DNA of 63,425 nt, filler included, from a bacterium (GCA_046331705.1; 3 parts of 3 records of this genome joined end to end with filler, not necessarily neighbours in it), one strand, 5' to 3'; counted from the first letter of the whole stretch, positions 4,714-46,167 are shown. The notes: generated by a model from the sequence alone, not told the origin. Numbers and translations are program-made.

Positions 4714-4845
4714 GGGCGTCCTCTCGTGCTGAAAATCGCCGCGGATCGCGGCAGTGTGCGGACTGAGGGAAATGCGTGTCAACCGCATTGCGCGCTTTGC
4801 CCGCCTCGAAAACGCTCTGGTACGCTCGCGCGCGGAGCCGTCCGA

Positions 4846-6618
4846 ATGACTCGCGCGCGTCGTGCCCCGCTTCGCTTTCGCCGCGTGACGAGTGCCGTTC
4901 TGGCGGCGGCGGTGTGCCTGGTCGGAGCGCTCGCGCGCGCCGCAGGACCGCCGCCGGCGGCGCCCAGACCTGCGGCCCATCGCGTCGTGGTGCTGCCCTA
5001 CTGGAACACCACGCCCGGCGATCTCGGCGCCCTCGGCGAGGGGATCGCCCGGGCGCTGACGCGGGACACCAGCAAGCTCGCGCAGCTGCCGCGCGTCGCG
5101 GTCGTTCCCACCGCCGAGGTGGACGCGGCGATCCAACGCGGCCTCAGCGCAGCCGAGCGCGACGCCTTCGCGCAGCTCCTCGCCAAGGGCGATCCGGAGG
5201 CCGCGTTGCCGCTGCTCACCAGCGTGGCGAAGGCCGCCAACGCGCGGCTGCTGGTGGTCGGCACGCTGGCGAGCGTGGGCGGCGCCGCGAGCGGCGGCGC
5301 GCAAGTGCAAGTCGAGACCTGGCTGCTCGCGCGCTCCGAGGACGGGCCCCTCGAGGAGCCCGTGCGCCACGTCTTTCGGGCGCCACGTGGGCGCAGCGCG
5401 GCCGAGCTCGCCAATCAGGTGGGCCAGGACGAATGGTGGACGAGCGCGCCCGAGCTCGACTGGTTCACGCGCCTCGGCACGCTGCACCCCGACGAGACCC
5501 AGAAACGAATCCTCAACCTCACCGCGGACGCGAAGAAGGATCGAATGAGTCTCGTGGAGCGCGTGTTCCCCGAGGAGTTCCTGCACGCGCAGACCTGCAA
5601 CATCACCCCCGAGCAGATGCGCGACGCGACGCTCGCCACCGAGCAGCTCACCCAACGCATGGAGCCCACGAATCCGCGCTCCCACAACTACCGCGGGCTG
5701 GTCGAGTACTGCGGCAAGAACGAGCCGCAGGCACTGCGCTACTTCGAGAAGGCATCCGCGCTCGACGCGTCGTTTCCCGACGCTTGGTACAACGCCGGCT
5801 GGATCTACTGGAGCGCGTACCAGCTCGGCCACGGCGCGGACGATCTCGACCGCGCGTTCCAATCGTTCTCCAAGGCCGTCGAGGCCGAGCCCGGCTTCGC
5901 CGAGGCGCGCGCCAAGCGCGGCCTCGCGTGGTTGGCGAAGGGCGATCCGCGCAAGGCCGAGGTGGATCTGCTCGCCGCCACGCGCGAGGATCGCGACAAC
6001 CCGGACGTGCTCATGGGTCGCTGCCAGCTCGCGGTCGCCGCCAAGCGCCCCGACTCGGCCAACGAGCTGTGCACGGCGGCGGTGCGCGCCGATCCCAAGC
6101 TCGTCGAGGCGCGCAAGATCCTGGGCGACGTGGCCCGCGATCGCAAGCTCACCGCCGCCGCCATCGAGGCCTACCGCGCCGCGTACGCTCAGAAGCCCGA
6201 TTTCGCCGAGGCGCGCGTCGCGCTGATCGAGCTCTTCTTCCAGGAGAAGCGCTACCGCGAGGCACGGATCGAGGCCGACGCCATGATCGCGGCGATCCCC
6301 AAGCACTCGGTGCCGCACTACTGGATCGGCAAGATCTGCGAGGAAGGCGATCAGAACTACGCCTGCGCGGAAGCCGCGTACCAGCAGGCGCTGGCGATGG
6401 ATCGCAACTGGGTCACGCTCCGCGACGACATCGCGCGGGTACGCGCCAAACGCGGGCCGGATGCGCGGCCGGCCACCGCCGCCGACATCCCCGCGGCGGC
6501 GCCACTGGAGCCTCCCAGCAAGCCGAGCGCCGCGGCCCGAGACGGCGCGCGCGGCGAACCCACGCGCGAGAGCTACGAAGAGTTCTTGCGGCGATACAAC
6601 CAGAGCAAGAAGCCGTGA
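4846..6618 (+). CDS. Secreted TPR-repeat protein with CsgG/TolB-N-like N-terminal region
   Basis: Signal peptide; RVVVLPYWN...ARLLVVGTL; repeated TPR units (FEKASALDASFPDAWYNAG, AVEAEPGFAEARAKRG). Confidence 0.75.
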   Translation: MTRARRAPLRFRRVTSAVLAAAVCLVGALARAAGPPPAAPRPAAHRVVVLPYWNTTPGDLGALGEGIARALTRDTSKLAQLPRVAVVPTAEVDAAIQRGLSAAERDAFAQLLAKGDPEAALPLLTSVAKAANARLLVVGTLASVGGAASGGAQVQVETWLLARSEDGPLEEPVRHVFRAPRGRSAAELANQVGQDEWWTSAPELDWFTRLGTLHPDETQKRILNLTADAKKDRMSLVERVFPEEFLHAQTCNITPEQMRDATLATEQLTQRMEPTNPRSHNYRGLVEYCGKNEPQALRYFEKASALDASFPDAWYNAGWIYWSAYQLGHGADDLDRAFQSFSKAVEAEPGFAEARAKRGLAWLAKGDPRKAEVDLLAATREDRDNPDVLMGRCQLAVAAKRPDSANELCTAAVRADPKLVEARKILGDVARDRKLTAAAIEAYRAAYAQKPDFAEARVALIELFFQEKRYREARIEADAMIAAIPKHSVPHYWIGKICEEGDQNYACAEAAYQQALAMDRNWVTLRDDIARVRAKRGPDARPATAADIPAAAPLEPPSKPSAAARDGARGEPTRESYEEFLRRYNQSKKP

Positions 6619-22464: not shown

Positions 22465-22564
22465 NNNNNNNNNNNNNNNNNNNNNNNNNNNNNNNNNNNN
22501 NNNNNNNNTTAATTAATTAANNNNNNNNNNNNNNNNNNNNNNNNNNNNNNNNNNNNNNNNNNNN
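22465..22564. other. Artificial contig-joining spacer
   Basis: N44-TTAATTAATTAA-N44; the linker gives stops in all six frames. Confidence 0.97.
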
Positions 22565-24014: not shown

Positions 24015-26285
24015 TCAGGTCGTGCGCACGACGGTGTCGAGCGCCTGTCGCACCGAGAGCGCCAGGTCCGCGATGACGAATGGCTTCTGCAGGAACGCGC
24101 GCACGCCGGCGGTGGCCACCACGTCGGCCGACATCATCTCGCCGAGACCCGAGGTGAGGATCACCGGCTGTGAGAGATGCCCGCGACGCATCGCCTCCGC
24201 GAGCTCGAGCCCCGTCATCTCCGGCATGGTCTGATCCGTCACCACCAGCTCGATCGGTGCACCGCCGTCGGAGAGCCGCTCGAGCGCTTTCCGTCCGTTG
24301 GCCGCCGACTCGACGTGGTAGCCGAGCTTGGTGAGGATGCGCTCGCCGAAGAGCCGGATGCTGGGCTCGTCGTCCACGAACAGGATGCGCTCGCCTCGAC
24401 CGCGCGGTGCAGCCGGGCCCGTTTCCGCGGCGTGCTCCGCCTGGGTGCTCACTCGCGGCAGGTAGACGCGGAACGTGGTGCCCTTGCTCGGCTCGCTGTA
24501 GACGGTGACGTCGCCGCCGCACCCGGTGACGATGCCGAGCACCGTCGGCAGCCCCAGGCCAGTGCCGCGGCCGCGCTCCTTGGTGGTGAAGAACGGATCG
24601 AAGATCCGCTCCAAGGTCGCGCGATCCATGCCGCACCCGGTGTCGGCCACCGTCAGCCTCACGTACTCGGTGCCGGGCATGAGCCGGGTACCTTCGTGGG
24701 CGCCGTCAACGTCGGTCTTCACGCGATCGAGGCTCACCGAGAGCGTTCCGCCCTGGCCATCCATGGCGTGGAACGCGTTGGTGCAGAGGTTCATCACCAC
24801 TTGGTGGAGCTGGGTGGGATCGGCCACCACCCTCCCCACGTCGCGATCGAAGGTGCGGGCGATCTCGATCGTGGACGGCAGCGACGCGCGCAGCAGGTTG
24901 AGCGCCTCGTTCACCACCGGCCGGATCTCGATCGGTCGCCGGACGTCCTCCACCTGGCGACTGAAGGTGAGGATCTGGCGCACCAGATCGCGAGCGCGTT
25001 GCGCGGCCTGCAGCACCGAGGTGAGGTCCGCACGGATCGGGCTCTCACTCGGCAGCGAATCGAGGGAGATCTCGGTGAAGCCCAGGATCGCCACCAGGAT
25101 GTTGTTGAAGTCGTGGGCGATCCCGCCGGCGAGGGTGCCGATCGCTTCCAGCTTCTGCGAGCGCCGCAGGCGCAGCTCGACCTCGCGCTCGTGCGACACG
25201 TCGCTGAGCACGACGATGCTCCCGACCGCGGCGTCATCGGGGGCGCGGATCGGGGAGATCTTCACGTCGAGCTCGAGCGCGCCCACGGTGTCTTGGCCGT
25301 GCTGCCCGACGATCGTTCCGGTGCGGATCTCGCCGCTCGCCGCCGGCCCCGGATCCGCGGTCGAGGCCGAGCCCGTGTCCAGCGCAGCCACCAGCGCGCC
25401 GAGATTCGCGCCCAGCGTACGGCCGCTCTTCTCGGCGAGCTGCACGAACGCCGGATTTCGATACAGGAACTCGCCATCCGAGTCGGCGATCGCGACGCCG
25501 TCGGCGAGCTGTTCGATCGCCGTGACCAGCCGGGCGACGCTCTCCTGCGCGCGGCGCCGGCCTTCGATCTCCTCCCGCAGCCGCGCGTGGCTGGCGCGCA
25601 GCTCCTCCTGTTCGCGGGCGAGCGAGGCGTGTGCCTCGCGCTCGTTCTCGATCGTGCCCGCCAGGCCTTCGAGCAGCGTCGCGAGCGCCATCGCCACCAC
25701 GCCGCTCACGAACAGGAAGTTGAGGCTCACGATCGTCCACTGGTGAAGCGCGGTGCCGGTGATGCGCAGCGCGAAGCTCACGTTCGCGAGGCCGAGCGCG
25801 CCGAACCCCATGAGCGTGACGGCGCTCACCGCGATGGTGGCGAGCGCGGTGCGCCAGCCAAGCAGCACCGCGGCGAAGAGCGACACCGAGAAGAGATAGA
25901 TCTCGCTCACCGGACCCACCTCGACGAGCAAGACGACCGAGAGCAGGTACGCGAGACCGACGAGCTGCAGCGAGCGCGAGCGATAGGACATGCGCCGCGA
26001 TCGCGCCAGCACGGTGACCCACACGAGACCGATCGTGTCGCCGACGATCACCGCTGGCAGGTCGTCGCGCAGCGCCGCAAACACGCTCGGCACGTACACC
26101 AGGGTGCCGAGCCACACGGTTGCGCGCAGCACCGTCGAGAGGATGCGCTCGCGCCACCGCTCGAGCGACTCTCCCGGCTGAGGCCGCGGCAGCGTCCCCA
26201 CGCGCCGCCAGACGGCTCCCACCAGCGACGCGAGACGGCTCCGCAGCGGCGAGTCCGGGGGCCGGGGGCGAAGGGGGGCGTTCAT
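24015..26285 (-). CDS. Membrane-bound hybrid histidine kinase (TM-PAS-HisKA-HATPase-REC)
   Basis: About 6 TMs, QKLEAIGTLAGGIAHDFNNIL, NLCTNA, DTGCGM, FDPFFTTK, GTGLGL, REC VVTDQTMP. Confidence 0.93.
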   Translation of the reverse strand: MNAPLRPRPPDSPLRSRLASLVGAVWRRVGTLPRPQPGESLERWRERILSTVLRATVWLGTLVYVPSVFAALRDDLPAVIVGDTIGLVWVTVLARSRRMSYRSRSLQLVGLAYLLSVVLLVEVGPVSEIYLFSVSLFAAVLLGWRTALATIAVSAVTLMGFGALGLANVSFALRITGTALHQWTIVSLNFLFVSGVVAMALATLLEGLAGTIENEREAHASLAREQEELRASHARLREEIEGRRRAQESVARLVTAIEQLADGVAIADSDGEFLYRNPAFVQLAEKSGRTLGANLGALVAALDTGSASTADPGPAASGEIRTGTIVGQHGQDTVGALELDVKISPIRAPDDAAVGSIVVLSDVSHEREVELRLRRSQKLEAIGTLAGGIAHDFNNILVAILGFTEISLDSLPSESPIRADLTSVLQAAQRARDLVRQILTFSRQVEDVRRPIEIRPVVNEALNLLRASLPSTIEIARTFDRDVGRVVADPTQLHQVVMNLCTNAFHAMDGQGGTLSVSLDRVKTDVDGAHEGTRLMPGTEYVRLTVADTGCGMDRATLERIFDPFFTTKERGRGTGLGLPTVLGIVTGCGGDVTVYSEPSKGTTFRVYLPRVSTQAEHAAETGPAAPRGRGERILFVDDEPSIRLFGERILTKLGYHVESAANGRKALERLSDGGAPIELVVTDQTMPEMTGLELAEAMRRGHLSQPVILTSGLGEMMSADVVATAGVRAFLQKPFVIADLALSVRQALDTVVRTT

Positions 26286-26669
26286 CGTGACGGACTCGTC
26301 CTCGACGCGTGGTGCAGTCCGGCCCGGTGTCAGGCCCCGACGGGCGCTTCGCCTCACGGTAGGCCAGCGGCCTATCGTAAGAAGCCGAGTTGTATCCGGG
26401 GTTTCAGGCTTCGGGCGAGTCTCCTCGCGCACTCGGTGTGCAAGAACGCCGCCGCGCGACGGTCCTGGGCCGCCCCAGGGGCGATCGTGCCCTGGCGCCC
26501 TAGGTGGAAGTATCCACGCATGTGAGCCCGCTCACGTACGAGCAGCGCGTCGAGCTCGCGATCGAGGGCTCGCTCGTGCGGGGATCGCGCGCGAACCGGG
26601 ACGTGTCGTCGTGAAGCTTCCACCGCTCGCGTTGTGGTGCCGCACGCGCTACGCGTATCGTCGAGTGGC

Positions 26670-27944
26670 ATGAATCCGTCGCTCGCCCCGCAGTTGGATG
26701 GCGAGGCTTCGCTCGCGCGCGGCAATGCTCGCGCGAACAAGCCTGCCAGGTCGACTCGCGCCGCGCCGCGGCAGCGTGCAGGGTGGAACGCCCTTCGGCT
26801 CGTCGTGGCGCTCTCGTGCGTGACGACCGCTGCTTGCACGCCGGAGCGATTCCAGCGATTGCTCACCGACACACATGCCGCCATTGGCTACGCGGTGCGG
26901 CCGACTCCGGCGGGTGGCTACGTCGTCGCCGGTTCCGCGGCGTTCCCCGGCCAGGTGAGCCCGATGACTCTGGTCGACACCGGGGCGGATGGCGAGCCGA
27001 TCTGGGCTGCCCCGATCGGCTCGAGCGTCATGGGTTGGGCCACGCACGTGGTTCCGGTGGTTGGCGGCGAGCTCGTCGCTTGCGGTACCGAGCTGCCCAA
27101 TCCGCCGGGACCGCCGCAGCTTCTAGCGCTCAGCCAGGTGGACGCCGCCGGTGCCGTCGAGTGGCATCGGGTGCTCGCGGCCCTGCCGCCGGGCAGCAAC
27201 GAGAGCGCCGAGTGTCAAGGGCTCGAGCCGGCGCTCGATGGCGGGTATCGGCTGATCTGGAAGCTCAATCAGGCACCTCCCGGGCAGACCGCGCGCGTGT
27301 GGGTGCTGGCCACCGACGCCGCTGGAGCCGAGATCTGGCGTCACCCCATCGAGGGCGGCGTGTCGGGCCCAGCGGCGCTCACCGTCACACCCGATGGGCA
27401 CACGATCGTCGCGGCGACGACCAGCTTGCTCGAGGTGCGTCTTCTCGATCTCGACGCGACTGGAAACGAGCAGTGGACGCGCACCTATGCCAGCAGCGTC
27501 TTCCGCGGCGCGGTCATCACCAGCATCGACGGGACGCAGGACGGTGCGTTCTTCCTCGTCGGGTCGATCGTGTCGCCCTTGACGCACGTGACAGCCGCCG
27601 CGCTCATCAAGATCGACCGCGCCGGGTCGATCGTCTGGACCCGTTATCCGTCCGACTTCGACGGAGACACGGTGATCAGCGACGGAGTGCATGGTCTCTA
27701 CGGCGGCTACGCGGCGGTCGGCTGGCAGCTAGCCCCCGAGTCGGGCTGCCTGCTCGTGAAGACCAGCGACGCCGGCGAAGTGGAGTGGAGCCGCCTCTTC
27801 GGACCGCCGGGCGTTGCGCGCGGCTGCACGAGCGTGCGCTCGACCCGAGATGGCGGCTTCGTGTTCACGGGGCTCTACTCGCCAGGAGACATGTACCTCG
27901 TCAAGACGGATTCGACAGGCGACGCAGGTCCACCCCCCGCGTAG
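26670..27944 (+). CDS. Secreted/lipoprotein with beta-propeller-like repeats
   Basis: LSCVTTAAC lipobox-like site; repeats 'TxDGGxVxxG...LVKTDxxGxxxW'; start uncertain. Confidence 0.7.
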   Translation: MNPSLAPQLDGEASLARGNARANKPARSTRAAPRQRAGWNALRLVVALSCVTTAACTPERFQRLLTDTHAAIGYAVRPTPAGGYVVAGSAAFPGQVSPMTLVDTGADGEPIWAAPIGSSVMGWATHVVPVVGGELVACGTELPNPPGPPQLLALSQVDAAGAVEWHRVLAALPPGSNESAECQGLEPALDGGYRLIWKLNQAPPGQTARVWVLATDAAGAEIWRHPIEGGVSGPAALTVTPDGHTIVAATTSLLEVRLLDLDATGNEQWTRTYASSVFRGAVITSIDGTQDGAFFLVGSIVSPLTHVTAAALIKIDRAGSIVWTRYPSDFDGDTVISDGVHGLYGGYAAVGWQLAPESGCLLVKTSDAGEVEWSRLFGPPGVARGCTSVRSTRDGGFVFTGLYSPGDMYLVKTDSTGDAGPPPA

Positions 27945-28276
27945 CCAACGCAATCCTTCGTCGCGCTCGGCGCGCTGGAGCGCGGCGCGTCCGATCCGGC
28001 CCTGACGTGCCAGCGCATGGGCCAGCCGCTTCAGCGTCGAGCTCGCACCGAACCGGATTCGAGCCTGACTCGCGGGAGCGCGGTGGACGAGGCCGCGAAT
28101 CCGTTGGTGAGCAATCTGCGGCCGGAGAGCCGCTGGGACTTGGTGGAGTGTGCTGCGGTGACGTCGACGACCGGGCAGTGGTAGAAGCGCTCAGCGCGAC
28201 GAGCCAGTCGCGCGAGATCCTGAAGCGGGGCAGTCCCGATCGATTCGAGCAGATTCCAACCTGAAGGAGGGTTCGG

Positions 28277-28507
28277 ATGCGCGCCACACGAACTCGGATG
28301 TTGCTGGTCATCGTCGGCCTCGCGGGCCTCGTCTGCTCCGTTTATGGGGCGTCTGCCGCCACGGCGAGATCGTCACGCAACTCCCGCGAGTACTGCCAGG
28401 AGCTGGCCAGCGATTGCGAGCGCAACTGTGAGTCCGGTGACGCCGCGAAGGAAGCAGCCTGCCAGCGCGATTGCGCGCGGCGGTACCAGGAGTGCCTGAA
28501 CGGATAG
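28277..28507 (+). CDS. Small secreted 6-Cys protein
   Basis: Strong RBS AAGGAGG; signal peptide; C-x6-C-x3-C-x10-C-x3-C-x6-C. Confidence 0.75.
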   Translation: MRATRTRMLLVIVGLAGLVCSVYGASAATARSSRNSREYCQELASDCERNCESGDAAKEAACQRDCARRYQECLNG

Positions 28508-28658
28508 GCGCTCTGACTGCCCACGGCGGTCGAGAAGGTCTTCGAGCTGCCCGCCGAAGCCGTCGTGGCGGCGTCGGCGAGCAACTTCCGGCACGAGTCG
28601 TTGCCCTGCTGCGGCCCAGCGCTCGGTGTGGCGAGGCAATGCAGCGAGGCGACGGTCA

Positions 28659-30650
28659 TCAGTCGTGATCGGCAGCGAGCTTTTCCGGGCTACGAGCACT
28701 GACGAGCTCATGCGGAAGCGAGAGCCAGTTGAGCTTCCCTTCTCGATAGCCCACGAGCTGTCTTTGCGACCAATCACACGCGATCACCTGCTCGACCGGA
28801 AGGGTGATGGCTGGCCGGTTGCTGGGCTCCACTCGAGTCCACCCGCCTTGGGATAGAAACGCGGCACCATCACAGCCGAAGGGGGCGCGTTCCAGGTCGG
28901 GAGCGTGAGTCGGCGACTCTCCGAACAATGCCAGTGGCGGCGGCGAAGGAGGCTCGAAGGTGTGTGTCGAGCACCTGCCGAGGTCGAGGTCCAGGCCCGA
29001 CTCGAGGAGACCGGCGCTCGGGCAATCGATCACCTCGTCGACAGTCCCATCGAGGTGATCGCACGACGTCAGGATGCGCAAGCGATCGCGATCGAAACCG
29101 AGGCTCCGGATGGTACACGACGAGTCCAGCGGCAACATCTTGAATGTTTGCCGTTCCGGTGTCGTGATCTCGAGGACGAACAGTCCTTTGTCGACGAATT
29201 GGCTCGACACGGCGAGGCGCCGATCTCGGATCGCCGCCACGTGAACCTCGGAGGTCGAGAAAGCGGGTTGGTGAACGACCGCGGGACGGCTGTCGGCTGC
29301 GCTGGCGAAGATCTGGAGGCGATCGGGATCGGCGATCAACACCGAGCCGTCGATCCCGTACTGGACGACTGCCCCCTCGGTCGTCTTGGCCCCTCGCTCA
29401 GGACGCGACACCCAGCAGGCCTCCAGGCCTCGGTCTTCCGGGCACGACAGATAGGACCGGGACAATTGCGAGGGAAGGTGTCCGGCTTCATCCACCGTCT
29501 GGCGGAACACGAGCTCCCATCGGTTGGGTTCGACGCGACGGGCCGCTCGAACTCGCCCGGGGAACGCGCCCTTGACCAGGAACGACTGGATATCGTTGCC
29601 TGCCCTGCGGATCAGCTTCAGGCGGCCCTTGTGCTCGATCCAGCCGGACAGCACGAATGTGTCCGGACCGACACCCGTGACGCTGGGCGCTTCCTCGAAC
29701 TGTCCTTCCGGATCAGCCCAAACGGCGAAGGTCTGACGCTCGCGGAGCGCTTCCTCGGTTCGCTGAAAGTCGTGGATCTCCGCATCGAGCGAGTCTGCAA
29801 ACGGGTTCGTCGCGCGGTTCATCAGACAGTCCAGGAGATTGACGCTCAGCTTGCGACGGCGGAGGGAAAACGACTCGTATCCCTCACGCCCGGTGCACGC
29901 ATCGTCCGCCGGCTCGAAGTCGCGGATCTCGCCCCGCACTCGACCGATCAGGCTGTAGGCGTAATCCCAGCTCAGGCCGCCCTCGTGGGCGTCGACGATC
30001 AGCCTCCACGTCTCGCTTCCCTTTGCCGCGTGGCAGGCGAGAGCCGCGCCTCGCTCGTCGCACGCCATCTCCTCGGAGCCGCCGAGTACCGGTAGCGGGG
30101 CACAGCGGAGCGCATCGGCGTCCTTGGCCATGTGCCGTCTTCCCCCCTCCCCGCCTCGCTCCAAATGCCCGATCTCGTGGCCGAGAATGCTCTGCACCAA
30201 GAATCGGCCCGCCAGCGCAACCTCCACGCGGATCGGTGGCCCGAAGTAGTTTGCCCGCGCCAACCACTCCGCGAAGCCGGGGTTACAGACGATCGTATTG
30301 CTTCTGGGAATCGACCAGCACCGTGGCAGGGACGCGCTCCCGTCACAGGCATCGGCATCCCAGCTCGCTTTGGCCGCGCGGTCCGGAAAGATGAGATTGA
30401 CGGCGGAAGCGTCGTGCGCGCCGTTGAAGTTCCACTCGCGAGCATCGAGCTTCGCCGCCGGCAACAGGTCGCGGGTCAGGCTCTCGAGCAGTCCCTTGTC
30501 GAGAGCGCGCGAGCCGACGCTCGCGCGGCAGGCGTCGTAATCGAAAGCGGTCGCTACCTCGGCGACGTCGAGAACGACCCACGCGACCATCGCCACGACC
30601 GCGACGGCCGACCAGCGTCGGCTCTCGTCGACGAGCCGCGCGCACATCAC
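28659..30650 (-). CDS. Secreted HExxH zinc-metallopeptidase-like protein with a Cys-rich beta C-terminal region
   Basis: GTGA overlap with upstream stop; signal peptide; ILGHEIGH plus downstream EEMACDERG (gluzincin-like third ligand). Confidence 0.65.
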   Translation of the reverse strand: MMCARLVDESRRWSAVAVVAMVAWVVLDVAEVATAFDYDACRASVGSRALDKGLLESLTRDLLPAAKLDAREWNFNGAHDASAVNLIFPDRAAKASWDADACDGSASLPRCWSIPRSNTIVCNPGFAEWLARANYFGPPIRVEVALAGRFLVQSILGHEIGHLERGGEGGRRHMAKDADALRCAPLPVLGGSEEMACDERGAALACHAAKGSETWRLIVDAHEGGLSWDYAYSLIGRVRGEIRDFEPADDACTGREGYESFSLRRRKLSVNLLDCLMNRATNPFADSLDAEIHDFQRTEEALRERQTFAVWADPEGQFEEAPSVTGVGPDTFVLSGWIEHKGRLKLIRRAGNDIQSFLVKGAFPGRVRAARRVEPNRWELVFRQTVDEAGHLPSQLSRSYLSCPEDRGLEACWVSRPERGAKTTEGAVVQYGIDGSVLIADPDRLQIFASAADSRPAVVHQPAFSTSEVHVAAIRDRRLAVSSQFVDKGLFVLEITTPERQTFKMLPLDSSCTIRSLGFDRDRLRILTSCDHLDGTVDEVIDCPSAGLLESGLDLDLGRCSTHTFEPPSPPPLALFGESPTHAPDLERAPFGCDGAAFLSQGGWTRVEPSNRPAITLPVEQVIACDWSQRQLVGYREGKLNWLSLPHELVSARSPEKLAADHD

Positions 30651-31528
30651 GGACTGGCGCGCACGTCGGACACGAGGACCAGGGCGCCGAAGCCGCCCTT
30701 GCAGGATGCCATCAGCTCGGGCGGCACGACATCTTGGATGAACGCGCCCGTTGCGCGCTGGGCCAGGTAGAACGATGCCTGGAACCCGGTCTTGAGGCCC
30801 CATACAGCGGAGTGAGCCAACGGGTGTTCCCCTGCCTTCGTCGTCAGATCGTCCTTCGCCAAGGCTGTGTGGGTGGGAGCTCCCGACGGACACCGCTTCG
30901 GCAGTCCGATGGGCCACGTGCCCGACACGAGCCCTCGGCTTTGCAGCTCGTGAAGGCGGGTCTTGCCAGCAGTCGTCCACAACGGAACGATCGGCAATGC
31001 GGACTCGAGAGGATCCCCGGGCGGCGCGCTGCCGTCCATGAGCTCCACGTAGTTCGAGTGGGCGTAGAAGTCTTGGAGTGTGTGGAGCGCGCGTCCGAGC
31101 GCGAGCAGAGCCTGACGACGGGCACCTGAGTCTTTCAACGCCATCTGCCCTTGCTCGCGCACGACCGTGACCATCTCGTCGACGAACTCGGCGCCGTCGT
31201 CGAAAGCGCAGTTGTCGAAGTGCACCCGGGACTCGGGCTGGAGGAAGATGTCCTGCAGCCAGTGCCCGCGGTCGATCAGCCCCGTGCACTCGGCATCCGC
31301 AACCTTGGAGAGCTTTTCATGGTAGGTGAGCACGAAGCGCTTCGTCTCGTCCGCAGGCCCTACCAGCAGGATGCGATCGCCTACGCCCTGCGAAACGCGC
31401 CGTTCGATGCCGGTGTACTCGAGATCGGCCTGCGCGGAGCCGCTTCCGGGGCCAGCAGCGTGCGCTGTGACGGATGCGACGCAAACGCACAAGCAAGCCG
31501 CGTGCAATGGACGCAACCGGTTTGACAC
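30647..31528 (-). CDS. Secreted HET-C / VWA7-N-terminal-like protein (Zn phospholipase C / S1-P1 superfamily)
   Basis: AAGGAGGT RBS and GTG start; signal peptide; HFDN, LGRALHTLQDFYAHSNYVEL, HTALAKD. Confidence 0.75.
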   Translation of the reverse strand: MSNRLRPLHAACLCVCVASVTAHAAGPGSGSAQADLEYTGIERRVSQGVGDRILLVGPADETKRFVLTYHEKLSKVADAECTGLIDRGHWLQDIFLQPESRVHFDNCAFDDGAEFVDEMVTVVREQGQMALKDSGARRQALLALGRALHTLQDFYAHSNYVELMDGSAPPGDPLESALPIVPLWTTAGKTRLHELQSRGLVSGTWPIGLPKRCPSGAPTHTALAKDDLTTKAGEHPLAHSAVWGLKTGFQASFYLAQRATGAFIQDVVPPELMASCKGGFGALVLVSDVRASP

Positions 31529-31706
31529 GAAGACCTCCTTGAACGTGCGGCTCCCGCACCAGAGTCGGTCCGCCCCGGCAGTTCTACTGATCTCGAAGGC
31601 AGGGCGCAATCGCGCGTGCGCCGCGAGTGCCGAATTCGGGTTGACTGCGATCCCGGCGCCGCCTGCGGCGCGAAGGCGCGGTGATGGAGGCTGGATCTCG
31701 CCGGCG

Positions 31707-32096
31707 TCAGCCGCCGATCCAGCCGGTCCGGAAGCAGATCACGAGACCGACGACCCAGACGGCGAGATAGCTCAGCGGGCCGAGGATCCATGCGACGGGC
31801 TTTCGGCGACGCACGAGGTCGCGACTCACCACGCCGAGCGTCGCCAGCGCCGACGGCGACAGCAGCAAGAAGGGAGTCACGAGGGCCCGCACCTCGCGCG
31901 GGACCACGAAGGCGAGGCCGAGGAATACGACGCCGAGGAGCGCGAGCCCGACTCCCCAATATCTCCACTGCTCGCGCGGACGCGGACGCATCCCGAGGAA
32001 CGTGAACACGATGGGTGCCACGCCCATGAAGACGATCTTGACGACGAGCTCGCCCACGACTCCGGTTCCTCGGGTCCCCGCGCGGTGGAGGCCCAT
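31707..32096 (-). CDS. Small hypothetical membrane protein
   Basis: Four hydrophobic segments in 129 aa. Confidence 0.5.
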   Translation of the reverse strand: MGLHRAGTRGTGVVGELVVKIVFMGVAPIVFTFLGMRPRPREQWRYWGVGLALLGVVFLGLAFVVPREVRALVTPFLLLSPSALATLGVVSRDLVRRRKPVAWILGPLSYLAVWVVGLVICFRTGWIGG

Positions 32097-32276
32097 TCAT
32101 CCCACACTTCGGCACGGAAGGCGATCGTCGCCCCGTATGCCCCGCAACGGAGGCCGCGGCGGCTAGCGATGGCTCGCTGCGCCGAAGGACTGTCGCCGCT
32201 CGAATCGCGCTTTGGTCGCGAGACGGGTGGCGACGGCGGCTGTTACGTTGCCGTTCTCGCTCGCGTGAGGGGTGCG

Positions 32277-32540
32277 ATGCAGCCGGTCAAGATCTACACG
32301 TCGGATTGGTGCGGTTTCTGTACCGCCGCCAAGCAGCTTCTGAAGACGCGCGGCATCGCGTTCGAGGAGATCGACACCTCGGGCAACGACGAGCTGCGGG
32401 CATGGTTGCGACAGACCACCGGTCGTCGCACGGTGCCGCAGATCTTCATCGGCGAGCGCGCCGTCGGCGGCTACGAGGAGCTGCGAATGCTGGACATCGA
32501 GGGCAAGCTCGGGAAGCTCGTCGCCGGCGAGGACGCGTGA
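32277..32540 (+). CDS. grxC: Glutaredoxin 3 family
   Basis: WCGFC, TGRRTVPQIFIG, VGGYEEL. Confidence 0.88.
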   Translation: MQPVKIYTSDWCGFCTAAKQLLKTRGIAFEEIDTSGNDELRAWLRQTTGRRTVPQIFIGERAVGGYEELRMLDIEGKLGKLVAGEDA

Positions 32541-33589: not shown

Positions 33590-35995
33590 CTACGCCGTTC
33601 GCGGCGCGTCGAGAATCGCGCGGACCAGCGACAGCATCTCGTGCGGTCGGCTCGGCTTCTGGAGGTAGTGATAGCCGCTCTCGTCGCCGAGCTTGCGGCT
33701 CGCCAGCGCGGGGCTGTATCCGCTCGTCAGGATCACCTCGAGACCGGGTGCCCGCGACCGCAACGCGGCGGCGAGCTCGAGGCCTGACATGTCCTCCGGC
33801 ATCACCATGTCGGTGATCAACAGGTCGATCTTGCCCGCGTGCTCGTCCCAGACACGAAGAGCGGCGGGACCGGAGGCGGCCTCGATCACCCGGTAGCCGT
33901 GTTGCACCAGCAGCCGCGCCAGGATGCGGCGCATGTCGCGCTCGTCCTCGACGATCAGCACCGTCTCCTGGCCGCACAGCTTCGCGGTGGACGGGATCGG
34001 CGTGTCCCCCGCCGAGACGACGGCATCGAAGCGCGGCAGCAGGACGTCGAAGGTCGTTCCGTGCCCCACCTCGCTCTTCACGCGCACGGTGCCGCGGTGC
34101 TGGTGGACGATCCCGGACACGGTCGCCAGCCCGAGGCCGGTTCCCTTGCCGAGCTCCTTGGTGGTGAAGAACGGCTCGAAGATGTGCGCTAGGTCCCCGG
34201 GCGCGATCCCGCAGCCGGTGTCGGTCACGCGGATGCGCGCGTACTCGCCGGGGGAACCGTCGGCGAGGGCGCGCGCGGCCGCGTCGTCCACCATCTCGGT
34301 GGCGGTCTCGACCAGCAAGCGCCCGCCGCTGGGCATCGCATCGCGCGCGTTGATGGCCAGGTTCATGAGCACCTGCTCGATCATGCCCGCGTCCCCGTTC
34401 ACCACCAGCGCGCCCGGGTGCAGGCACAGCTCGAGCCCGATGTCCTCGCCGAGGAGGCGCGACAGCATCTTCGCCAGGTCGCCGACCACCACGTTCACGT
34501 CGATGGGCTTGATCTGCATGACCTGCCGACGGCTGAACGCGAGCAGCTGGCGGGTGAGGTCGGCGGCGCGCTCGAGCGCGCGGGTCATGTCGTCGGTTCG
34601 CTCGCGGACCTCGCCGGATGCGGTGGGATGGCTCGACACCTCCTCGGTGAGCATCATCAGCGCGCCCAGGATGTTGTTGAAGTCGTGCGCGACGCCGCCC
34701 GCCAAGCGGCCGATGGCTTCGAGCTTCTGCGCCTGGATGAACTGCTCTTCGGCGCGGCGTCGATCGGTGACGTCGGCCGCCACGCCGACGCGCCGCTCGA
34801 CCCGTCCGGACGCGTCGCGCACCTCCGTGCCGCGGTCTTCGATCCAGCGGATCGAGCCGTCCTTGCCCACGATCCGGTACTCCGCCTCGAAGGAACCGCT
34901 CGCCCACATCGATTCGAGGGCACGCCGCAGGCGCTCCTGGTCCTCGTGATGGACCGCGTCCATCCAGCTCGCAGGGTCGGCGTAGAGGCTCTCGCAGGAG
35001 TGCCCCCAGATTCGTTCGTAGCTGGGGCTGACGTAGAGCACCGCGGTATGGCTCGCATCGGTCATCCAGAAGACCTCCTGGATGTTCTCGACCACCTGCC
35101 GGAATCGCGCCTCGCTCTCGCGCAGCGCGCGCTCGGCGAGGTGGCGCTCCGTCACGTCCTGGTTCGCGCCGTAGGTGCGGACCACGCGTCCGGCGGCGTC
35201 GCGCTCGACGCGGATCTCGACGTGCATGACGCCGCTCGAGCCGTCGGCGCGGCGAATCGCATGCTCGAGACAATGGCGATAGTTCCCGTTCCGCGCCGCG
35301 CGCGCGGCCTCGATCTCGCTTCTCACCAGCTGAGCGGAATCCGGGGGGAGGAAGCGTCGCGCGTACTCGTCGGGCGACATCGTGCCGCCGCCCTCGCGCT
35401 CCGCGGAGGTCCCGAAGATCCGGAAGAAGTCGTCGTCGAAGGCGAAGCGGTCGGTCGCGACGTCGTATTCCCAGTAGCCGAGCTTGGCGATGTCCATCGC
35501 GAGCGTGAGCTTGGAGTTGGTGTTGCGTAGCTCGTGCTCCGCGCGGAGTCGCTCGGTGATGTCCTGGACCTGAGAAAAGAACTGCAAGGGCCGGCGGTTC
35601 GCGTCGCGCACGAGCGAGACGTGAAGCTCCGCCAAGCGGATGGTGCCGTCCGGTCGCAGATAGCGCTTCACGAGCTCGTACGAGTCGGCCTCGCCGGCGA
35701 GCAGGCGCTTCACCTGCGCGAGGTCGGGAGCGAGGTCGTCGGGATGCGTGAGCGACTGGAAATCTCGGGCGAGGAGCGCCTCGCGCGAGTAGCCGAGCAT
35801 CTCGCACAACGCGGGATTGACGCTCAGGAAACGCCCGTCGGTGGCGACGATCGCCATCCCGATGGGAGAGCTCTCCATCGCTGCGCGAAAACGCGCCTCG
35901 CTCGCGGCCAGCGCTTGCTCGAGCTGGCCCGCGTTGCGCAGCGCCTCGTCGAGCGAGGTGCCGAATGACGAGTGGCGATCCGCGAAATCCTGCAT
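33590..35995 (-). CDS. Cytoplasmic hybrid histidine kinase (3 PAS-HisKA-HATPase-REC)
   Basis: Three PAS/PAC units, [38 protein letters not shown]. Confidence 0.93.
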   Translation of the reverse strand: MQDFADRHSSFGTSLDEALRNAGQLEQALAASEARFRAAMESSPIGMAIVATDGRFLSVNPALCEMLGYSREALLARDFQSLTHPDDLAPDLAQVKRLLAGEADSYELVKRYLRPDGTIRLAELHVSLVRDANRRPLQFFSQVQDITERLRAEHELRNTNSKLTLAMDIAKLGYWEYDVATDRFAFDDDFFRIFGTSAEREGGGTMSPDEYARRFLPPDSAQLVRSEIEAARAARNGNYRHCLEHAIRRADGSSGVMHVEIRVERDAAGRVVRTYGANQDVTERHLAERALRESEARFRQVVENIQEVFWMTDASHTAVLYVSPSYERIWGHSCESLYADPASWMDAVHHEDQERLRRALESMWASGSFEAEYRIVGKDGSIRWIEDRGTEVRDASGRVERRVGVAADVTDRRRAEEQFIQAQKLEAIGRLAGGVAHDFNNILGALMMLTEEVSSHPTASGEVRERTDDMTRALERAADLTRQLLAFSRRQVMQIKPIDVNVVVGDLAKMLSRLLGEDIGLELCLHPGALVVNGDAGMIEQVLMNLAINARDAMPSGGRLLVETATEMVDDAAARALADGSPGEYARIRVTDTGCGIAPGDLAHIFEPFFTTKELGKGTGLGLATVSGIVHQHRGTVRVKSEVGHGTTFDVLLPRFDAVVSAGDTPIPSTAKLCGQETVLIVEDERDMRRILARLLVQHGYRVIEAASGPAALRVWDEHAGKIDLLITDMVMPEDMSGLELAAALRSRAPGLEVILTSGYSPALASRKLGDESGYHYLQKPSRPHEMLSLVRAILDAPRTA

Positions 35996-44988: not shown

Positions 44989-45088
44989 NNNNNNNNNNNN
45001 NNNNNNNNNNNNNNNNNNNNNNNNNNNNNNNNTTAATTAATTAANNNNNNNNNNNNNNNNNNNNNNNNNNNNNNNNNNNNNNNNNNNN
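44989..45088. other. Artificial contig-joining spacer
   Basis: N44-TTAATTAATTAA-N44. Confidence 0.97.
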
Positions 45089-45864: not shown

Positions 45865-46167
45865 ATGAACACCGAGACCGCCGGCATCACGACGTTGCTG
45901 GGTCATGCGCGCCCGGATGAGCTCGAGGAGCTCTGCCCGTGGCTGGCCGCGCCCCGCGCTTTCGACGAAGAGGAGGAAGCGGAAGCCGAGGACGAAGAAG
46001 ACGAGGAAGACGAGGAGTTCGACGAGGAGGACTTCGACGACGACGACGTCGACGACGAGGACGACGACGACGGAGAGTTCGACGAGGNNNNNNNNNNNNN
46101 NNNNNNNNNNNNNNNNNNNNNNNNNNNNNNNNNNNACGAGGACCTCGACTGGGAAGACGACGAGTAA
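45865..46167 (+). CDS. Small hyper-acidic protein (interrupted by an N gap)
   Basis: GGAGGA RBS; short N-terminus then a D/E run; ends EDLDWEDDE-stop after the gap. Confidence 0.55.
   Translation: MNTETAGITTLLGHARPDELEELCPWLAAPRAFDEEEEAEAEDEEDEEDEEFDEEDFDDDDVDDEDDDDGEFDEXXXXXXXXXXXXXXXXXEDLDWEDDE
46088..46135. other. Scaffold gap (48 N) in a low-complexity GAC/GAG repeat
   Basis: N run without linker. Confidence 0.95.

Follow-up and report, generated by a model that had tools for sequence, protein, structure and literature searches.

We analysed a 63,425-nucleotide stretch of bacterial DNA, filler included (the window), and focused on two adjacent genes, A and B, at positions 28659 to 31528. 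The source is a metagenome-assembled genome (MAG) of an uncultured sludge bacterium. It comprises 8.17 Mb with 70% GC in 118 contigs, and is 95.7% complete with about 2.6% contamination. The gene pair lies well within a single contig (C87; window 22565-44988). Both genes, and all of their features described below, are on the minus strand. Gene A (P0001; 30647..31528) has a GTG start and encodes 293 amino acids plus a stop codon. A Shine-Dalgarno sequence, AAGGAGG (31534..31540), can be read 5 nt before the GTG. Translation, Pfam matches and an AlphaFold2 (AF2) model indicate an exported protein of the Het-C/VWA7_N type, predicted to be a metal-dependent hydrolase. Gene B (P0002; 28659..30650) encodes 663 amino acids plus a stop codon. 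From its translation and AF2 model, the product is an exported protein of an unnamed family, with an HExxH gluzincin-like domain and a beta-propeller. The stop codon of gene A and the start codon of gene B overlap (GTGA, 30647..30650), an arrangement that couples their translation. The junction reads CCGTGATGTGC. Hence, gene B starts either at GTG, with the 4-nt GTGA overlap, or at the next codon, ATG, with a 1-nt overlap (TGATG). The database copy of gene B (P0003) begins at the ATG.

Gene A opens with a predicted Sec signal peptide (residues 1-24, cleaved at VTAHA|AG; 31457..31528), recognised by its arginine-rich n-region and hydrophobic core. Signal peptides of both proteins were judged by eye rather than with a predictor. 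Relatives of gene A have similarly hydrophobic N-termini. The following stretch (residues 25-64; 31337..31456) may be a propeptide. It separates the signal from the core, varies in alignment A3 and is modelled with a pLDDT of about 47-78; relatives carry unrelated sequences at the equivalent position. The core starts with F65-x4-H70 (31319..31336). Across 40 sequences F65 never varies, and conservation of H70 is at least 90%. Next come H103-F-D-N106 (31211..31222), which holds the HxD of the Het-C signature and is invariant in alignments A3 and A5, and H149-TLQ-D153-FYA-H157-S-N159-YV-E162 (31043..31084). The latter, identified from sequence, conservation and the Het-C signature, combines HxxxDxxxH with NxxE. 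A C-terminal His/Asp pair, H220-TALAK-D226, is found at 30851..30871; K225 is invariant, and conservation of the terminal His and Asp reaches at least 90%. Written out, the three motifs read HFDN (103-106), LGRALHTLQDFYAHSNYVEL (144-163) and HTALAKD (220-226).

Gene A is a stand-alone secreted Het-C/VWA7_N-type protein. It matches Pfam VWA7_N (PF25107) at 38.5 bits (gathering cut-off 27.5, E 1.1e-9) and Het-C (PF07217) at 26.6 bits (cut-off 21, E 2.8e-6). Both alignments are partial, covering profile positions 41-102 of 230 and 205-231 of 561, respectively. Precomputed Pfam labels on seven relatives agree with the assignment, and there is no NCBIfam match to gene A. The published Het-C signature consists of H, [DE], HxD, HxxxDxxxH, Nxx[DE] and [ST]G, as set out in the relevant part of Zhang et al. 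2012 (PMC3482391). Gene A contains all of it: H70, D93, H103xD105, H149xxxD153xxxH157, N159xxE162 and S202G203. Conservation in the 40-sequence alignment is complete or at least 90% at each of them. Proteobacterial relatives resembling the PhcA protein discussed below (L004, L007, L013, L026, L033 and others) have a KPPPPP stretch and a CxxC-D-Q-P motif directly before the invariant Phe. The CxxC-DQP motif is not in gene A.

The AF2 model of gene A (pLDDT 85.4, pTM 0.83) has an all-helical core at about residues 68-275. The N-terminal segment is modelled less confidently, with pLDDT below 50 at residues 65-70. Candidate metal ligands conserved in gene A-like proteins are F65, H70, D93, H103, H149, D153, H157, H220 and D226. 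Enzymes of the zinc-dependent phospholipase C/S1-P1 nuclease superfamily have nine clustered metal ligands, one of them a free aromatic residue at the N-terminus. In phospholipase C and P1 nuclease the N-terminal Trp and a nearby His bind zinc. By analogy, F65-x4-H70 recalls this zinc-binding Trp/His arrangement. For gene A the predicted activity is that of a multi-zinc phosphodiesterase, of the phospholipase C/P1-nuclease kind. We infer zinc dependence for the products of both genes.

Gene B likewise has a hydrophobic N-terminus (residues 1-35, ending VATA|FDY; 30546..30650), predicted to be a signal peptide or signal anchor and forming a helix at 10-33 in the model. Hydrophobic N-termini are present in 23 of 29 aligned family members (alignment A1), with conserved Y38 and C41 directly after; the other six sequences are short or cut N-terminally. 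Residues 36-305 (29736..30545) form an alpha/beta metallopeptidase-like domain containing 9 Cys, supported by invariant residues, hhalign and ESM Atlas. Its HExxH motif, H158-E-I-G-H162 (30165..30179; ILGHEIGH at 155-162), is invariant in 29/29 sequences. So are E194 and D198 of E194-M-A-C-D198 (30057..30071; EEMACD at 193-198), the former being the candidate third zinc ligand. The two residues align with the EExAD motif of the partner families described below (A4, A7). Residues 306-648 (28707..29735) form a seven-bladed beta-propeller, identified with VIA-align and Foldseek, that contains 8 Cys. Invariant positions in the 29 relatives are N85, C102, C111, C122, H158, E159, H162, C183, E194, D198, A205, D249, C252, R264, C543 and C560. 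The Cys of the two parts, 9 and 8, make up all 17 that follow the signal. The protein is disulfide-rich and therefore extracytoplasmic. A HMMER search of 1.84 billion cluster representatives found 44 relatives at E<=1e-3, most of 600-700 amino acids and matched over their full length.

The AF2 model of gene B (pLDDT 83.9, pTM 0.81) divides into an alpha/beta part (about 36-305) and an all-beta part (306-648). VIA-align superposes residues 304-649 on Sec12 with Z 18.8 (rmsd 3.7, 297 aligned). In all, 657 chains reach Z>=8, many of them WD40-type propellers, and Foldseek finds propellers at E of about 1e-7. Pfam detects no WD40 sequence repeat in gene B. Propellers filled the whole-model Foldseek and VIA searches, which are uninformative on the N-terminal domain. 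For residues 34-308, ESM Atlas gives leads to Peptidase_U49, M48, M13 and DUF4344, all zincins. The gluzincin pattern, HExxH with a downstream Glu, is present in gene B and in 29/29 relatives. Pfam Peptidase_M48 (PF01435) does not match gene B at E<=1, and matches 4 of the 29 family members (best E 0.11). Because of profile links, set out below, and M48 matches in the related short-partner family A4 (few in A1), the sequence of gene B is best described as that of a divergent M48-like gluzincin with an added propeller.

A first-pass annotation of this DNA had noted the signal peptides and motifs of both proteins, the Het-C/VWA7_N type of gene A, the stop/start overlap and a Cys-rich beta C-terminal half in gene B. 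All are borne out. The signal peptide and quoted motifs of gene A are present and its type passes the Pfam cut-offs, while the overlap (GTGA or TGATG) is confirmed in the sequence. The same is true of the gene B signal peptide, by eye, and of ILGHEIGH and EEMACD, the domain being HExxH gluzincin-like and, by remote homology, M48-like. In the model the C-terminal half of gene B is all-beta with 8 Cys.

To place the pair in context, genome contigs (one genome per species) were scanned with an alignment of A-like proteins. The scan returned 140 relatives. Eighty loci were retained, and 38 of these encode full-length relatives of A (HMM coverage of at least 200 positions). A same-strand HExxH gene lies directly downstream in 28/38 loci. 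In 27/38 it is a secreted HExxH partner of about 380 amino acids that starts a few bases from the stop codon or overlaps it, a count that includes one fusion (L010) and one locus cut by a contig end (L035). Hence, the 28 partnered loci comprise 26 with a separate M48-like gene of about 380 amino acids, one fusion and one long gene B-family partner. The long partner occurs in a Methylomicrobium MAG (L016). It is a full-length gene B-family member (HMM score 586) that starts 11 nt after the stop and is about 18% identical to gene B, measured on the alignment row of its near-copy P0024. The pair studied here, with gene A followed on the same strand by an overlapping secreted HExxH gene, has the same Het-C plus gluzincin operon organisation as defined for the 38 loci. 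The first-pass annotation had allowed that homologues might occur independently with no conserved pairing; the neighbourhood search speaks for a conserved pair instead. We conclude that the A-B pairing is conserved, and is one instance of a broad gene association rather than a case of chance neighbours. Carriers of the operon include Pseudomonadota, among them P. syringae, Acidobacteriota, Myxococcota and Nitrospirota.

Of particular note is L010 (4319-6286, +), from a Thermoanaerobaculia MAG. Here, a single 660-amino-acid secreted open reading frame (ORF) combines the Het-C-type and M48-like HExxH domains, with a Pro-rich linker in place of the second signal peptide. The fusion is natural rather than the product of a frameshift artefact. 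A further secreted HExxH gene, of about 270 amino acids, is found in 15/80 loci. It is mostly divergent and upstream; in L032 it is downstream on the same strand. This family carries LLHEvGHL and EEDADEFA (for example L026, L033, L014 and L017, at about 4800-5900, -) and has only sub-threshold M48/M78 matches. Other arrangements were also seen. At L036 (917-1714, +; Thermosynechococcaceae MAG) a trypsin-like serine protease (TAGHC and GGQSGGP), not an HExxH gene, lies downstream of the Het-C-type gene; it may be a protease of another kind with the same role. The Methylomicrobium MAG that carries L016 has a second Het-C locus, L038 (3899-4838, -), where the upstream short-partner gene is split over three frames, being either a pseudogene or the product of assembly errors.

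The partner families are related to one another. In hhalign comparisons the gene B family (A1) matches the downstream short partners (A4) at 88.6% probability (E 2.6e-6, 116 columns) and the upstream short partners (A7) at 93.3% (E 2.8e-7). Profile comparison of A4 with A7 gives a probability of 95.1% (E 3.1e-8). All three comparisons align the same core: a Cys, then (V/I)xCNP or VFVNP, LLGHExGHL and E(E)xAD. The catalytic HExxH, Glu and Asp are invariant in 29/29, 17/17 and 11/11 sequences of A1, A4 and A7, respectively. Pfam Peptidase_M48 is matched by 15/17 members of A4 (best E 2e-6); the first member scores 24.2 bits against a cut-off of 20.3. Pfam eCIS_core matches 7/17 members of A4 below threshold (best E 0.0039). 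The short partners of about 380 amino acids have no propeller.

Searches for further members gave little. Profile A1 found nothing in four of five genomes carrying relatives of A. Nor did it match any of 401 genomes in the phylum of G061, where at most three candidates were scored per genome and emptiness is uninformative. A word-limited search for longer proteins with an A-like domain found no fusion to a peptidase. The same search returned two bacterial proteins of about 890 amino acids (P0055 and P0056, one of them from a Thermoanaerobaculia MAG) with domains PF23560, PF25107, PF25106 and PF23619. As these carry the full VWA7-like domain set, the architecture of animal VWA7 exists in bacteria too.

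Genes A and B are each single-copy in their genome. No homologue of the short partners is present, and the partner-family profiles (ds, nb and A1) match nothing else there. The phylum is represented by six genomes, of two genera in one family, in a collection of about 200,000 species. In the other five (four of the same genus, one of the same family; 74-100% complete) A, B and the B-family profile had no match. One same-genus genome, G001, keeps both flanks of the site. On the left is the MASE11/PAS hybrid kinase (94% identity). On the right (82%) are a membrane protein with a sub-threshold DUF7940 match, a glutaredoxin and an epimerase. Between the flanks, G001 has 1.8 kb with an unrelated 498-amino-acid ORF and the genome studied here has 4.3 kb that include the pair. 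The G001 ORF (L092:1604-3100, +; G001:C363) has a hydrophobic N-terminal stretch and is probably secreted. That it might be a diverged copy of gene B was considered and rejected (BLASTP best E 0.69). The syntenic site looks like a hot spot at which genes for exported proteins replace one another.

Composition was also examined. The pair has 65.5% GC, against 69.5% and 69.3% in the flanks and an ORF mean of 70.3%. Ranked against the genome's 3821 long ORFs, both genes fall at about the 4th percentile for GC and the 7th-11th for GC3. Hence, the A/T-richness remarked on in the first-pass annotation is real but modest, and its idea of an acquired module looks right: the pair was not found in five relatives, another gene sits at the G001 site and GC is slightly low. 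No tRNA, notable flanking direct repeats or mobility gene was found near the pair. In a tree of A-like proteins, gene A groups with P0006 in a small clade apart from the L016 protein. The tree conflicts with organism phylogeny, placing Nitrospira and Methylomonas inside betaproteobacterial groups, although branches are long and both results should be read cautiously. Because the genes are single-copy, unmatched in the five relatives, replaced in G001, lower in GC and patchy in the tree, the data fit an accessory cassette moving between lineages.

The pair is not confined to its source assembly. Near-identical DNA, defined by at least half of sampled words, is present in 14 sequencing runs of eight studies (P1-P8) covering activated sludge, wastewater and digesters. 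The source sample may account for four of the 14, each from study P1. In an independent DNA run (X5, study P2) contigs tile the stretch at 99-100% identity, and one spans the A/B junction. RNA-library contigs (X15 of study P9; X16 and X17, one sample, of study P10) lie inside both genes at 99-100% identity, none of them spanning the junction. DNA carry-over is possible in such libraries; hence, these contigs do not show transcription. Three more RNA runs (X18-X20) contain small shares of the sampled words.

The neighbourhood is ordinary. Eight neighbouring genes scanned with Pfam include sensor kinases, a glutaredoxin, an epimerase and an ABC1 kinase. No secretion-machinery genes were detected by Pfam among the eight, nor any PVC, T6SS or RHS context. 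The first-pass term "export system" is therefore not sustained, since both proteins also have ordinary signal peptides. On either side of the variable region is a hybrid sensor kinase that has a receiver domain (MASE11/PAS at window 24015-26432, -; multi-PAS at 33590-35995, -). A 436-amino-acid ORF (window 26634-27944, +) converges with gene B. Its N-terminus is possibly of the signal or lipoprotein type, and Pfam returns nothing for it; in G001 only a 219-bp piece of it aligns, at 79% identity. Within 28000-32300 no sigma-70-like promoter and no intrinsic terminator were found. Elsewhere in the window, runs of N at 22465-22564, 44989-45088 and 46088-46135 are joins of separate MAG contigs (C86, C87 and others), and gene order over these joins is not real.

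What might the two proteins do together? In the reading that we prefer, tentatively and at somewhat short of an even chance, the gene B product processes or activates the gene A hydrolase, by analogy with Mpl and PlcB of Listeria. Four considerations favour maturation. The relation between the genes is one-to-one and has survived as a fusion. The catalytic residues of the partners never decay in three families. Gene A has a variable 40-residue segment between signal and core. Finally, the best structural neighbour of gene A, PlcB, is a proenzyme activated by Mpl. In such a scheme both products of the acquired operon would be exported via Sec, with A leaving the cell as a pro-form bearing the variable N-terminal segment (25-64). 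The gene B product, possibly holding A or the target surface by its propeller, would cut the segment off near Phe65-x4-His70. This would complete or unblock the metal site of A. The active hydrolase would then attack membranes or nucleic acids of other cells in sludge, such as competitors, prey or fungi. We infer the cleavage, the substrate and the ecological role from these comparisons. Complex prediction with B (34-648) and A (27-293) scored 0.00 in two runs without controls, and weighs neither way.

The scheme can be extended, although we think the extension unlikely. Het-C/VWA7_N enzymes in general could be zymogens, with a hitherto unrecognised superfamily of secreted gluzincins co-evolved as their dedicated activators. 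These would comprise the downstream form of about 380 amino acids, the upstream form of about 270, the 650-amino-acid propeller form and the fused form. Their cut would free the invariant Phe (F65 in gene A) as an N-terminal metal ligand, the part that Trp1 plays in phospholipase C and P1 nuclease.

Several results weigh against maturation and the assignments beneath it. We know of no Het-C/VWA7_N protein with an established enzymatic activity. When the gene A model was compared with 48,161 chains by VIA-align, Listeria PlcB ranked first (Z 6.5, rmsd 4.7, 150 aligned), followed by C. absonum alpha-toxin (Z 6.3) and B. cereus phospholipase C (Z 5.9), with S1 nuclease ninth (Z 4.3). This exhaustive ranking counts in favour, but the leading values of 5.9-6.5 are modest, and according to the tool Z below about 13 is possibly trivial for helical proteins. 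Foldseek, a check proposed at first pass for both proteins, succeeded for the gene B propeller and not for gene A: against the PDB the gene A model has nothing at E<=0.001, the best E being about 1. Zinc phospholipases C do crowd the weak Foldseek rows. The 40-sequence gene A-like profile (A5) matches no PDB chain at E<=10, and the Pfam Zn_dep_PLPC score (PF00882; 12.4 bits, E 0.15) is below the cut-off of 26.8. Together, the modest Z scores, the sub-threshold Pfam score and the published profile link favour the phospholipase C/P1 nuclease superfamily for gene A, without proof. Gene B has no Pfam or NCBIfam match at E<=1, and hence no peptidase family match, and profile A1 has no PDB sequence match at E<=10. 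The zincin fold of its N-terminal domain is suggested by motifs, profile links and the ESM Atlas results, which are leads.

The pairing and the proposed cut also raise difficulties. No downstream partner is present at 10/38 loci, one of which (L043) is too short to judge and another (L036) the locus with the trypsin-like gene. Two scans of JGI metagenome contigs (A2 and A6) returned no relative of gene B. Hence, only two genomic contexts of the gene B family are known, and the long-partner pairs do not form a single clade on the tree of A-like proteins. In most relatives Pro precedes the invariant Phe (CDQP|F). Since Pro is an unusual P1 residue for a metalloprotease, the cut, if any, may lie elsewhere.

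Among other explanations, the one that survives best has A and B as co-effectors. They would be independent, co-regulated secreted hydrolases on the same target, B degrading proteins and A lipids or nucleic acids, with no processing. We regard this as possible, though on balance rather less probable than maturation. Each protein has its own export signal and keeps its catalytic residues, and the propeller could bind the target surface. Many loci have two different gluzincin genes round the Het-C gene, exceeding what a single activation step needs. Releasing metallopeptidases can double as toxins, as stated in the pertinent section of PMC3482391. However, the tight, near-universal adjacency, the start/stop overlaps and the single-chain fusion point to a one-to-one relation. 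Partner families also adjoin Het-C genes and are not scattered in this genome.

A role for B as guard or immunity protein is improbable. B, or its propeller, would hold A inactive in the periplasm of the producer or destroy stray A, much as periplasmic immunity proteins of phospholipase effectors act. B is exported to the compartment of A, beta-propellers are common binding modules, and no immunity protein is listed for Tox-HET-C where PMC3482391 treats that domain. Against this, the invariant HExxH, Glu and Asp in three partner families argue for catalysis and not mere binding, and a propeller is lacking in the short partners. Joining a toxin to its own immunity protein, as L010 would then do, would defeat the purpose. 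Furthermore, A has a Sec signal and is no contact-delivered toxin.

We give equally little credence to a housekeeping pair, in which A and B would serve turnover or quality control of the cell's own envelope, unrelated to antagonism. M48-like proteases such as BepA and HtpX are typically envelope quality-control enzymes and the flanking genes are ordinary. Nevertheless, the pair was unfound in the five other genomes of the phylum, an unrelated gene occupies the G001 site, and the patchy distribution is at odds with organism phylogeny; absence in relatives and patchiness are thus a misfit with housekeeping. Finally, chance neighbours or an assembly artefact, conceivable for a MAG of 118 contigs with 2.57% estimated contamination, can be set aside as highly improbable given the pairing in 28/38 loci, the fusion, the contig of independent run X5 that spans the A/B junction, and the near-identical DNA in runs of several studies.

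For decades the Het-C/VWA7_N domain has been familiar through fungal non-self recognition, through PhcA of P. syringae and through a vertebrate protein linked to the major histocompatibility complex (MHC). Its chemistry is still treated as a prediction in the papers that we consulted. Our data add a genomic rule: where the Het-C domain stands alone in bacteria, it is usually accompanied by a secreted zinc protease, which comes in three related forms and, at one locus, fused to it. This suggests, in testable form, how the poorly understood Het-C-type enzymes are switched on, and culturable carriers include Pseudomonas, Methylomonas and Sorangium. Two of the partner families have no Pfam name: the gene B family has no match and the upstream family of about 270 amino acids matches below threshold, while the family of about 380 amino acids scores with Peptidase_M48. 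In the sludge bacterium the pair may serve as a secreted weapon or as a lytic tool. Were the zymogen reading true, it would provide a first biochemical handle on the domain of fungal heterokaryon incompatibility and of mammalian MHC class III VWA7. It would also predict proteolytic activation for the eukaryotic versions.

The two nearest known cases are PhcA and Tox-HET-C. PhcA of Pseudomonas syringae is the bacterial het-c homologue that was reportedly described by Wichmann et al. in 2008 (Mol Microbiol 68:672). Like PhcA, gene A is a stand-alone bacterial Het-C-domain protein. The P. syringae locus among the relatives of gene A (L026), which we assume to be phcA itself, has a Het-C gene and then a secreted HExxH gene, the same operon logic. 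A best-segment identity of 36% to gene A is typical of the group to which L026 belongs. There are also differences. Gene A is about 27-35% identical to the proteobacterial proteins and falls with P0006 in its separate small clade, it has no CxxC-DQP, and its partner is a 663-amino-acid gluzincin-propeller, not an M48-like protein of about 380 amino acids. PhcA is cited as a bacterial het-c homologue in passages of PMC3482391 and bioRxiv 10.1101/2025.01.22.633611 and in the references of PMC10197012. According to the first two, its expression in Neurospora leads to incompatibility-like death. The passages on PhcA mention no partner protease.

A second comparison is with Tox-HET-C of polymorphic toxins. 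The part of PMC3482391 on this domain predicts it to be phospholipase C/P1-like, and sometimes fused to a "PVC-metallopeptidase" releasing domain. Tox-HET-C, as presented there, shares with gene A the residue signature and the predicted relation to zinc phospholipase C and S1-P1 nucleases. Its association with an HExxH "releasing" peptidase, in the same account, is a precedent for coupling the two activities. Here, however, the activities reside in separate Sec-exported proteins, and a single locus has them fused. M48 rather than eCIS_core gives the partners their best scores, and gene B matches neither. Nor does the locus resemble a polymorphic toxin system, with its trafficking domain or repeats at the N-terminus, its dedicated secretion system and its immunity gene downstream: A has 293 amino acids with a Sec-type signal only, its neighbours are ordinary and the downstream gene keeps its HExxH. 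Elsewhere, VgrG-Het-C fusions of the type VI secretion system (T6SS) have been described in Acinetobacter.

The third comparison, with Mpl and PlcB of Listeria, concerns mechanism and is no evidence of membership. Mpl is a thermolysin-like M4 protease with no propeller, and so, unlike gene B, neither M48-like nor propeller-bearing. Structurally, PlcB is the closest match to the gene A model; in sequence no similarity between them is detectable. In the Listeria system (PDB 8cqm) a zinc phospholipase C-type enzyme is exported inactive, and a metalloprotease that the bacterium also makes activates it. The relevant passages of PMC10576769 describe LmPC-PLC as an inactive proenzyme whose 26-residue propeptide is removed by the metalloprotease Mpl. 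They add that activity needs the exact N-terminal residue and that the W1F variant stays active.

Lastly, animal VWA7, fungal HET-C and gene A have in common the core HFDN followed by HxxQDFYxHSNxxE. Whereas the animal and fungal proteins are large and have several domains, gene A consists of just the catalytic-type domain and a signal peptide. The first-pass annotation had called the pair undescribed. This does not stand for its components, as bacterial Het-C proteins (PhcA, Tox-HET-C) and a metallopeptidase fusion are in print. As to the combination, in the openly available main texts, the relevant parts of which we consulted, we found no description of an operon linking a stand-alone secreted Het-C protein to an M48-like gluzincin, or of the gene B family. 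Our reading is that the locus is a rare long-partner variant of a widespread PhcA-type Het-C operon.

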